Source of the DNA: a virus
Lineage: Duplodnaviria; Heunggongvirae; Uroviricota; Caudoviricetes
DNA length: 64,000 bases
Virus record (IMG/VR): IMGVR_UViG_2654588054_000003
Direction: 5' to 3' (one strand)
In this document: positions 1 to 3,000 of the stretch, one piece after another
How the letters are laid out: every line of letters starts with the position of its first letter
Position numbering within the stretch: position 1 is the stretch's first letter
Made by a program: the position numbers

Positions 1-3000
1 TTAGCCATTAAGTTTAACTGCCAGACCTGCGACATATTCCCCTTGATAACGAGCAATAGACAGTTCTTCCTGGCTGGGCTGGCGTGAACCGTCACCGCCT
101 GCGATGGTGGTTGCGCCGTACGGCGTACCGCCGCGAACCTGTGAAACGTCAAATAATTCCTGCGCTGCGTAGCCAATGGGGACAATCACCATGCCGTGAT
201 GCGCAAGGGTCGTCCAGGTGGATGTGATGGTTTGTTCCTGACCGCCGCCAGTACCGGTGGAACTAAAGACGCTCGCCAGTTTTCCGTATAGTGCGCCGGA
301 AGCCCACAGGCCGCCCGTCTGGTCGAGGAAGGTACGCATTTGACCGGACATGTTGCCAAAGCGGGTAGGTGTACCAAAAATAATGGCGTCGTAATTGGCC
401 AGTTCTTGCGGGGTTGCAACCGGTGCAGTTTGCGTTTTACCGCCTGCTTTTTCAAATAATTGCGGCGACATGGTTTCCGGTACACGCTTAACGACAACTT
501 CAGCGCCATCCACTTTGCTTGCACCCTCAGCGACTGCGCGTGCCATCGTTTCAACATGTCTAAGGATATGGTTTATCATTTTGAAAAATATAATTTTATT
601 TCATCCTCCTGGTCACTTTGGGGCACGTCTGGGGCACGGGCATTAAGGACATTATTCAACATGGCAACCTGAGTCACGCTGCACTCAGGCATCCATGCAC
701 CATAAACATTGTAGACCATGCTGGCGCTGGAGTGCCCCATCTGTGATGCAATAAATGTCGGGTTTGCTCCGGAAGATAAAGCCCAGCACGCATAGGTATG
801 GCGTGACTGATACGCTTTACGGGATCGGATACCCGCTCTTTTTATTGCTGAATCCCATGTCGCTCCGATGGAGCTTACCGCGTAGTTAATACCCGCCTTG
901 TGATTCTTGCGAACGATTTGCGGACAGAAAACAAAAGTGCACTCGTGCAAAATTGTTCTTCCGTACTCGCGTAATTGAACAGTGATCTGATGCTGCCTGC
1001 TAAGACGAGTAAGCATCGCCTGGTTTTTAAGTGCTTCAATTGCTGGTGCCAGAAGATGTATAACCCGGTTAGTGCCTGCGTCGGTCTTTGGTAGCGTAAA
1101 ATCACCTATTTTTGTAAAATTTCGTCGCACTGTTATCGTGCCAGCTTTCAGGTCGATATCCTCCCATGCAAGTGCGGCAATTTCACCGTGTCGCATCCCT
1201 GTAAAAACAGCCACTGTCCAGAGGTTTTTGGTCTGTTGATGATGGCAGGCATCAATGAGACGGCTAAACTCATCTCTGGTCAGTGGATCCGGCACTGGTT
1301 TTGATTTCCTCAGCGGTGTTATTGAATTAAACGGGTTTTTCTCCAGATACCCGTTTTCGGCGGCAAAGCTGAACATTCCGGCTGTTGTTGTCATGTAATA
1401 GTTCACTGTGGGTACGGTTCTTCCTTTTCGGGACGTGCTGGTTTTCCTGCTTCCCTTTTCCCCGGTCAGTAAATCTTTCCTGATAAACAGCAGATCTTCT
1501 TTTGTAATCGATGACGCCAGCCTGCCAGGACCAAGCCTCGGTAGCATATTTTTCATCACTGATTGATAACGATTTAAGGCGTTACTACCGATTTCCATTG
1601 CTTTCAGAGTAAGCCATTTCTGTGCCAGTTCACCGACGGTGATATCTTTTTTTACCAGGCCAAATAGCTTCAGGTTAGGTGAGTCAGGGAATCGATCGGC
1701 ATAATCAAACGTTCCTGTTCTGATTGCAAAGCAGACCGAAGCCCTTAACTCACCAGCGATCTTTCTGTTTTTCGGTGTATCGGGCACGCGAAGATTTTCG
1801 CGCACTCGTTTACCCCTGTACTTAAACGTTATTCGGAGTTTTCCTCCGTGATTTTCAACGCCGGCTGGATAGGCTGAATTCGCCATTGTTCCTCCTGCGT
1901 CCAAGAGCACGCTCAGGTTATACTCTTATGGACAAGAATTAAACATCCTGAGATGGTAAGGGTTGGTTTTTGATCCAAGTGTTGATGGTAGGAAGATGAT
2001 AGAGACATTCGCTGTTTTTCTTTGGCGTTCCGTCGGGGGCGATTTGTTTATATTCTCTGCCGTTCATCCACGCACTGTCCCTGGCGCGTAATATTGTTCC
2101 TTTTCTCAGGCCTGTTACAGCCATTAAAAGCTCCAGTGTTACCCATTCATTCGCATTTATCTGTACAACAGGTGTGATGACTGGCTGAATGCCATGGTTA
2201 TGTTGGTTTACTAACTCGCGCATAAGTTGCCTCTGCATGTGTAAGAAAAAACCGCCATCAGGCGGCTTGGTGTTCTTTCAGTTCTTCAATTCGAATATTG
2301 GTTACGTCTTATTCGATGCGCACTCCTGGTATTTCGCCTTTTGATATTGCTAAGTCATAAATTTGCGCGGCACTATACCCATCTCGCATCCATGAATCTA
2401 AGGCGCGAACAGCCTCGCTACGCTTTTTATCTTCTCTCTCATTTTTGATATCAACGAGGACATCAACGCAATTAAGGCAAATGTGGATTTTGTCTTTACA
2501 TTCGATCATGGCGGCTTTGCCATGATTTCCGCCACACAGTGAGCATAAATCTTCAGGGTCTGGCTGGTATTTCTGTAACGTTAGAGGGTTGAATGTTGAA
2601 CAGGCCATAATCATCTCCATAAAACAAAACTCGCCGTAGCGAGTTCAGATAAAAGAAATCCCCGCGAGTGCGAGGATTGTTATTCATTGCCGATATTCAC
2701 CTTTATCGCGAACACCTTTACCGGTTTATCACCGAAGTGCGGATGTGTGATTGTCTTGATTTCATATCCGTCATACGGAACGTCAATTCTGCGACTGGAA
2801 TCCTCGCGCTTAGGATATCCCTTTGTGATAATCAGGCGGTCATATTCCCGGAACATAATTCGCTTATTCCAGCAGTCATTGCACAGGCGATATTCTTCTG
2901 TTTTCTCCCCGCGAATCATGGCATCGAAGTATTCACCTTTAACGGCAAGTTGCAGGTTAGCCATTACCGCACCTCCAGTCTCCATACCGCCTGACCAATC

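Follow-up and report, generated by a model that had tools for sequence, protein, structure and literature searches.

Phages that regenerate the host gene into which they integrate, such as those at tRNA 3' ends or e14 and phage 21 at icd, carry a homologous copy of the segment that they displace. In Escherichia coli, Shiga toxin (Stx) phages have wrbA among their main sites of insertion. The original records of the Stx2 phages 933W (AF125520) and VT2-Sakai (AP000422; Sp5 of the O157:H7 strain Sakai) present wrbA as divided, in the wording of AP000422 'divided by the insertion of prophage', and both annotate a 7-bp core as attachment site or as core of the left attachment site (attL). Here we analyse a stretch of 64,000 nt (hereafter the window; IMG/VR virus record IMGVR_UViG_2654588054_000003), at one end of which the integrase gene (int) of a prophage adjoins the body of wrbA and an open reading frame (ORF) of 192 aa, hereafter the chimera, crosses the junction.

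Over 2001 nt, the window matches prophage VT2-Sakai in wrbA at 100% identity, and the junction region shares 99.9% identity with 933W; integrase, core and split wrbA are the same in these attL junctions and no structural difference was found. The feature is the long-known attL junction of a 933W/VT2-Sakai-type Stx2 prophage in E. coli wrbA. The chimeric frame is real and already annotated, and is not new: wrbA is divided in the original 933W and VT2-Sakai records, whereas current RefSeq presents the chimera as an ordinary wrbA. We consider it likely that the chimera is incidental to integration at this known site and that its product is not an active WrbA.

As in the gene-regenerating phages, integration occurs within a gene and the junction leaves a frame open. 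Unlike in those phages, the displaced 5' segment of wrbA is not duplicated, nor are its promoter and Shine-Dalgarno sequence, and the replacement peptide is unrelated to the one displaced. Of the signals needed for expression, the phage side here supplies transcription, from starts at 700/701 and 1908, but no Shine-Dalgarno sequence close to the chimeric ATG.

Anatomy of the junction and attachment sites

The two prophage ends are composed as follows.

1 to 579, minus strand: chimeric wrbA ORF of 192 aa, MINHILRHV followed by WrbA residues 16-198, with an ATG start, the C-terminal residues KLNG and the stop codon at 3-1
1 to 547, minus strand: body of wrbA specific to the host, beginning at the third base of codon 17 and reaching the stop codon, identical to the intact O157:H7 allele
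548 to 554, read on the minus strand: 7-bp overlap (core) TTGAAAC of attL, the strand-exchange site, as annotated and as obtained from the comparison of four attachment sites
555 to 579, minus strand: phage-derived 25 nt ATGATAAACCATATCCTTAGACATG, comprising the start codon, seven new codons, the His codon common to both and base 1 of Val9
63701 to 63763, minus strand: remnant at the right attachment site (attR), in which the wrbA Shine-Dalgarno sequence, ATG and 17 codons are fused to phage DNA; 20-aa ORF MAKVLVLYYSMYGHIETMKH, ending in a stop codon
63714 to 63720, minus strand: attR core TTGAAAC, from the comparison of attachment sites

An earlier note on this DNA, made from the sequence alone, had proposed that the junction is in frame with a phage-encoded ATG and that this ATG overlaps the integrase stop codon. 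Both statements were confirmed: on the minus strand the 192-codon frame runs from 579 to 1, and its ATG (579-577) shares two bases with the integrase TGA (578-576), forming ATGA (579-576). Two further statements required refinement. The prophage does lie within the 5' end of wrbA, but insertion does not simply follow codon 17 as had been stated; the exchange falls inside TTGAAAC, which covers codons 15-17 and is present as the same 7 bp at both prophage ends. The phage does supply the residues MINHILR, but phage-specific sequence reaches the first base of Val9, giving MINHILRHV.

The comparison with an uninterrupted wrbA locus, which the earlier note had suggested, was made with attB of a K-12-like genome (GACATATTGAAACGATG), attP as it stands in the circular Stx2 phage I record (GACATGTTGAAACCATG), and attL (GACATGTTGAAACGATG) and attR (GACATATTGAAACCATG) of the window prophage. 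The four sites agree and the frame is kept. Swapping the arms of attL and attR rebuilt attB and attP, which matched the predicted recombinants including two mismatches flanking the core. As these two mismatches segregate as predicted, strand exchange takes place inside the 7-bp overlap. Homology to uninterrupted wrbA begins at window 560, and around the core attP and wrbA are alike at 15 of 17 nt.

attP lies only 22 nt beyond the int stop codon, and the chimeric start codon derives from the context of that stop, AAA-TGA. In attP the same ATG opens a mini-frame of 14 codons in free phage sequence, so that the start codon exists in the phage independently of wrbA. At 63722-63763 (minus strand), ~63 kb from the chimera, lies the 5' end of wrbA together with the native promoter region and a GAGGAG Shine-Dalgarno sequence; in comparison with native wrbA, the chimera has thus left the sigma-S promoter and the ribosome-binding site behind at attR. 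The remnant ORF MAKVLVLYYSMYGHIETMKH corresponds to Z1504 in strain EDL933.

Consequences for the WrbA protein

The nine residues MINHILRHV replace fifteen WrbA residues, MAKVLVLYYSMYGHI, with only His in common, and chimera residues 10-192 equal residues 16-198 of O157 WrbA (183/192, 95%). With 192 aa against the 198 aa of WrbA and an unrelated N-terminus, the chimera is not the 'full-length' wrbA that had been claimed.

Conservation of the replaced segment was assessed in 80 full-length homologues, one per 50%-identity cluster and 41-73% identical to WrbA. (Clusters of 217 aa with unusual C-termini among the homologues turned out to be frameshift variants and not further chimeras.) The N-terminus of the homologues forms beta-strand 1, which is hydrophobic (positions 4-7), and the conserved YSxYGH motif comes next. 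WrbA positions 1-6 are gone from the chimera and most of beta-strand 1 is deleted; the YSxYGH loop reads N-H-I-L-R-H. Position by position, the conserved residues fare as follows.

Y9, conserved in 67 of 80 homologues: N in the chimera
S10, conserved in 76 of 80: H in the chimera
Y12, conserved in 62 of 80: L in the chimera
G13, conserved in 72 of 80: R in the chimera
H14, conserved in 69 of 80: H in the chimera, retained

Profile searches registered the same loss. The Pfam Flavodoxin_1 score was 40.7 bits for the wild type and 21.8 bits for the chimera (gathering cut-off: 25), and the matches of short-flavodoxin hidden Markov models at wild-type residues 1-49 were lost in the chimera. AlphaFold2 models from equal-depth alignments of 17 sequences, both of moderate confidence and suited to a weak matched comparison only, placed beta-strand 1 of the wild type at residues 2-8 [predicted local distance difference test (pLDDT) 90 for residues 1-10; predicted template modelling score (pTM) 0.78], and gave no beta-strand 1 and a disturbed sheet for the chimera (pTM 0.60).

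On the basis of WrbA crystal structures and of the flavodoxin-like fold, we take beta-strand 1 to be the central strand of the WrbA sheet, and the loop after it, residues 10-15, to bind the phosphate of flavin mononucleotide (FMN). As both beta-strand 1 and the YSxYGH loop are lost, the chimera is expected not to act as an FMN-dependent quinone reductase. Conservation and general knowledge of the flavodoxin fold suggest that wrbA would in effect be inactivated in lysogens. The earlier note had raised the question whether WrbA stays functional in lysogens; the deletion of most of beta-strand 1, the replacement of Y9, S10, Y12 and G13, and the lack of any ribosome-binding site in the 20 nt before the chimeric start argue against this.

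The wrbA body in the lysogen shows no decay and no differences from the intact O157:H7 allele. Two substitutions relative to K-12, P44S and D68N, were considered as signs of wrbA decay in lysogens and rejected: they are lineage alleles at variable positions and are present in intact O157 wrbA.

Transcription from phage DNA

Expression was read from published data sets of EDL933, which encodes the same protein (WP_000607020.1) and differs from the window by one mismatch (window 669) in the first 2300 nt. Its locus names are Z1423 for the chimera (also EDL933_RS06605), Z1424 for int and Z1504 for the attR remnant.

In strand-specific RNA-seq of eleven conditions, the chimera yielded 17-1347 RPKM (reads per kilobase and million reads mapped) and int 17-432, with a background of 0.14 (PMC4048457). 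In lysogeny broth (LB), the chimera (RPKM 121) was below int (168). Its values exceeded those of int at pH 9 (538 vs 177), at 15 degrees C (1347 vs 432), with nitrite (561 vs 236), in spinach juice (295 vs 74) and in faeces (45 vs 17; all PMC4048457). In a stationary-phase microarray, Z1423 reached a log2 value of 12.9 and was only 2.9-fold lower in an rpoS mutant, compared with 93-fold for Z1504, which is under the native wrbA promoter (PMC2907692). Both data sets thus place the transcript of the chimeric ORF well above background; its absence is what the earlier note had named as counting against the proposal.

Transcription starts on the phage side have been mapped by Cappable-seq, and a candidate promoter element can be placed next to one of them.

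700 to 701, minus strand: transcription start assigned to chimeric wrbA, located within int and 122 nt upstream of the chimeric ATG (Cappable-seq, PMC10469882)
1908, minus strand: int transcription start, in all 8 EDL933 lysogen conditions with a signal of 47-241 (Cappable-seq, PMC10469882)
708 to 715, minus strand: candidate -10 element TCTACAAT, TACAAT at 713-708 with T-14 and C-13, sigma-S-like, 7 nt before start 701 (read from the sequence)

Five conditions placed the start of the chimera at EDL933 position 1333637 and a sixth condition at 1333636, with none reported in stationary M9 or stationary salt cultures (PMC10469882). Its signal was 47.9 in stationary LB and 41.3 in stationary acid, compared with 8-14 in exponential cultures (PMC10469882). 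The chimeric gene is transcribed from phage DNA in lysogens, and the earlier note's question about expression from a phage-side promoter is answered in part by this start inside int. Read-through from the int start at 1908 is probably a further source of transcripts. The TACAAT element lacks a good -35 and is absent from the list of a consensus promoter scan; as a putative promoter for start 700/701 it would agree with the signal increase in stationary phase and with a dependence on RpoS that is only modest. A weak promoter that the scan did list at 616-587, which would give a near-leaderless mRNA, was rejected, as the number of such sites equals chance and no Cappable-seq start lies there.

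Translation

No anti-Shine-Dalgarno pairing was found within 20 nt of the chimeric ATG, compared with -8.4 kcal/mol at the native wrbA start and -10.3 kcal/mol at the int start; the sole AGGAGG near the chimeric start lies 25-33 nt upstream. In the absence of a nearby Shine-Dalgarno sequence, initiation would rely on termination-reinitiation at ATGA. Ribosomes terminating there could derive from int if the mRNA is a read-through product, or from an internal AUG in the int frame on the 701 transcript. The chimeric gene is absent from the supplements of two EDL933 ribosome-profiling papers, and no proteomic or enzymatic record of the chimera was found. The one proteomic detection of WrbA that was found was set aside because the strain used, 933D, is described as stx-II (no Stx2 phage). 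We infer that translation of the chimera is weak. The tryptic peptides specific to the chimera are MINHILR and HVETMAR, versus VLVLYYSMYGHIETMAR.

The alternative that survives best assumes that only RNA is made: ordinary phage or pervasive transcription would run into wrbA'-yccJ, and the ORF would not be meaningfully translated. The missing Shine-Dalgarno sequence agrees with this, as does the finding that non-canonical intragenic starts are very numerous in EDL933 (PMC10469882). In LB the chimera also stays below int, as read-through predicts, and the downstream gene yccJ has a start of its own. Yet the ATGA overlap with the translated int gene could permit some reinitiation, and the signal of the start site varies by condition, unlike uniform noise. 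This alternative largely overlaps with the explanation that we prefer and differs from it solely on whether protein is made. We regard it as unlikely as a separate account, though less so than those considered below.

Origin of the open frame

A more far-reaching alternative is adaptive repair, in which the phage has evolved a promoter and a replacement start that keep WrbA (and yccJ) working under new regulation, by analogy with phages that bring along a copy of the 3' end of their tRNA or icd target. Several observations could be read in this way: the ATG keeps the wrbA frame and shares the sequence ATGA with the int stop, the phage-side start at 700/701 has a higher signal in stationary phase, the RPKM of the chimera rises to 1347 and exceeds that of int 2- to 4-fold in several stresses, and attP resembles wrbA at 15/17 nt around the core.

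The frequency of open frames expected by chance was estimated by joining arbitrary prophage positions on both strands to the wrbA body in the same frame (17,886 trials). An in-frame ATG occurred before the first upstream stop in 38% of these fusions, and ATG, GTG or TTG in 56%; an ATG within 10 codons was found in 14%. With an in-frame ATG in 38% of arbitrary fusions, the open frame of the chimera is no better than chance.

Repeats of the form TGCCCCAR occur in both arms of the attachment site.

618 to 636, minus strand: two TGCCCCAR repeats of the P arm, within the 3' coding region of int, candidate arm-type integrase sites
63542 to 63591, minus strand: four TGCCCCAA repeats of the P' arm, candidate arm-type sites

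Six of the seven TGCCCCAR copies in the window adjoin the att cores, and the orientation is the same throughout. These clustered repeats are probably arm-type integrase sites, as judged from their sequence and position. Given their presence in both arms, the DNA surrounding the chimeric start forms part of the site of recombination. As a side observation, Stx2 phage I carries one extra repeat unit in P'.

Of 75 relatives of the integrase in other species (22-70% identical), not one sits next to wrbA. From the int stop to the core, the P arm was identical in four distinct attL copies, namely those of the window prophage (= WS4202, AP000422), 2012EL-2448, Stx2_H27V05 and Stx1a_EH182. With no relative beside wrbA and an invariant P arm, these comparisons allow no inference on selection for the in-frame ATG. 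Integrases 52-70% identical to the one studied here are widespread (Citrobacter, Enterobacter, Kluyvera, Yersinia and others).

Adaptive repair therefore meets several objections. The residues supplied by the phage bear no relation to the ones that they replace, and the N-terminal motif of highest conservation is removed, the chimeric ATG has no Shine-Dalgarno sequence, and chance alone opens the frame in 38% of fusions. A similarity of 15/17 is demanded by a core-type recombinase site anyway, the 25 nt between the int stop and the core are constrained by recombination function, and comparative support is absent, given that the P arm does not vary in the copies examined and that 0/75 integrase relatives lie beside wrbA. 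We regard adaptive repair as improbable. The same low probability is given to a variant in which the promoter that is stronger in stationary phase, together with the ATGA start, would provide a largely RpoS-independent supply of a WrbA variant; either this variant would have kept useful activity or the promoter would really serve the upkeep of yccJ, and integration would amount to a regulatory conversion of a host stress gene and not to a knockout.

A stable FMN-free chimera with an altered role, for example as an apo-protein or by titrating or mixing with WrbA partners, has abundant transcripts and the match of 183/192 residues to WrbA 16-198 in its favour and is nevertheless the least probable alternative, because lysogens hold no intact WrbA to poison and the loss of a central beta-strand argues against a stable fold, for which the drop in the AlphaFold2 scores is weak support.

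We prefer the reading of an incidental chimera whose product is probably inactive. In the mechanism that we propose, a 933W/VT2-Sakai-type Stx2 phage integrates into the 5' end of wrbA through tyrosine-recombinase exchange within TTGAAAC, and the closeness of attP to the int stop (AAA TGA with an ATG in the wrbA frame) happens to leave a frame of 192 codons open. Lysogen transcripts arise from the start at 700/701 in the 3' end of int, and probably also by read-through from the int promoter, and any translation would occur by termination-reinitiation at ATGA. The product would lack beta-strand 1 and the YSxYGH loop, and FMN-dependent quinone reductase activity would be lost. Three observations weigh against an incidental, inactive chimera: the wrbA body is undamaged, which says nothing if the integration event is recent or can be reversed; ATGA is a classic overlap of coupled genes; and a substantial transcript with a dedicated start site would also fit a maintained gene.

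Occurrence and annotation

The wrbA junction was found in 216/5426 complete E. coli genomes. The Prokaryotic Genome Annotation Pipeline (PGAP) and RefSeq name the chimera wrbA, NAD(P)H:quinone oxidoreductase (WP_000607020.1), and in a second lineage the chimera is annotated as WP_000607019.1. Compared with E. coli WrbA, a type IV NAD(P)H:quinone oxidoreductase (PDB 2R96, 3B6I and others; TIGR01755/NF002999), the chimera shares residues 16-198 and scores far above the family cut-offs, but its match is not end-to-end, as the first 15 residues are replaced and the YSxYGH loop is missing. Against NF002999 it obtained 322.4 bits (cut-off: 141) over profile positions 13-199 of 200 only, whereas intact WrbA obtained 357 bits with a match from profile position 1 (1-199), so that the chimera loses 34 bits. 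Against TIGR01755 it obtained 317.5 bits (cut-off: 132.5). The call of an intact wrbA by PGAP is an effect of the score threshold.

The consequences of this label can be seen in two published comparisons. A preprint (10.1101/2022.08.08.503262) reported 'wrbA G25>A, Val9Ile' in EDL933 clones that had lost 933W and took the change for a mutation of attB preventing reintegration. In the chimeric ORF, position 25 (window 555) is a phage-derived G, and attB carries the host A of codon 15 there. As the G at position 25 belongs to the phage, 'G25>A, Val9Ile' is the product of precise excision, that is, restored attB. In a comparison of transcription starts, the phage-internal start was paired with the wrbA promoter of K-12, giving 5' untranslated regions of 121/122 nt and 50 nt, respectively (PMC10469882).

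Integrase and neighbouring transcription

The integrase gene adjoins the junction and is oriented towards it.

576 to 1886, minus strand: tyrosine integrase with Arm-DNA-bind_2 and Phage_integrase domains (domain search; PGAP agrees)

PGAP places the int start at an ATG at 1886 (436 aa), whereas AP000422 and AF125520 use a GTG at 1910 (444 aa). The ATG at 1886 is preceded by an AGGAGG Shine-Dalgarno sequence. As the mapped int transcription start at 1908 is downstream of the GTG at 1910, the ATG at 1886 is likely the true int start.

On the plus strand, a promoter-like site (TCAACA, 17-nt spacer, TATCAT) at 551-579 covers both the att core and the start of the chimera. An antisense start has been recorded at window 584 (plus strand) in stationary LB and stationary acid cultures (Cappable-seq, PMC10469882), which would yield RNA antisense to the 3' end of int.

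At the other prophage end, the native wrbA promoter (to ~63900) is still active at attR, with an RPKM of 778 for Z1504 in spinach juice. Transcription of the attR remnant points into the right-hand end of the prophage, in the direction of an ORF starting at 63174 (minus strand).

The start of yccJ lies at window 4 (minus strand), within the last wrbA codons (PMC10469882). RPKM values of yccJ are above those of the chimera, reaching 6854 at 15 degrees C, and yccJ need not be silenced by the prophage insertion.

Significance

An active chimera would be unusual, in that both the 5' end and the promoter of a host gene would come from a phage; the evidence argues against it. The main practical value of our analysis is a caveat on annotation, as the RefSeq label 'wrbA' on the chimera can mislead comparative and variant analyses. 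Lysogens of this type are best regarded as strains in which wrbA function is probably lost while RNA of the wrbA body is still made, under different control, and this matters for the reading of transcriptomes and oxidative-stress phenotypes of enterohaemorrhagic E. coli.

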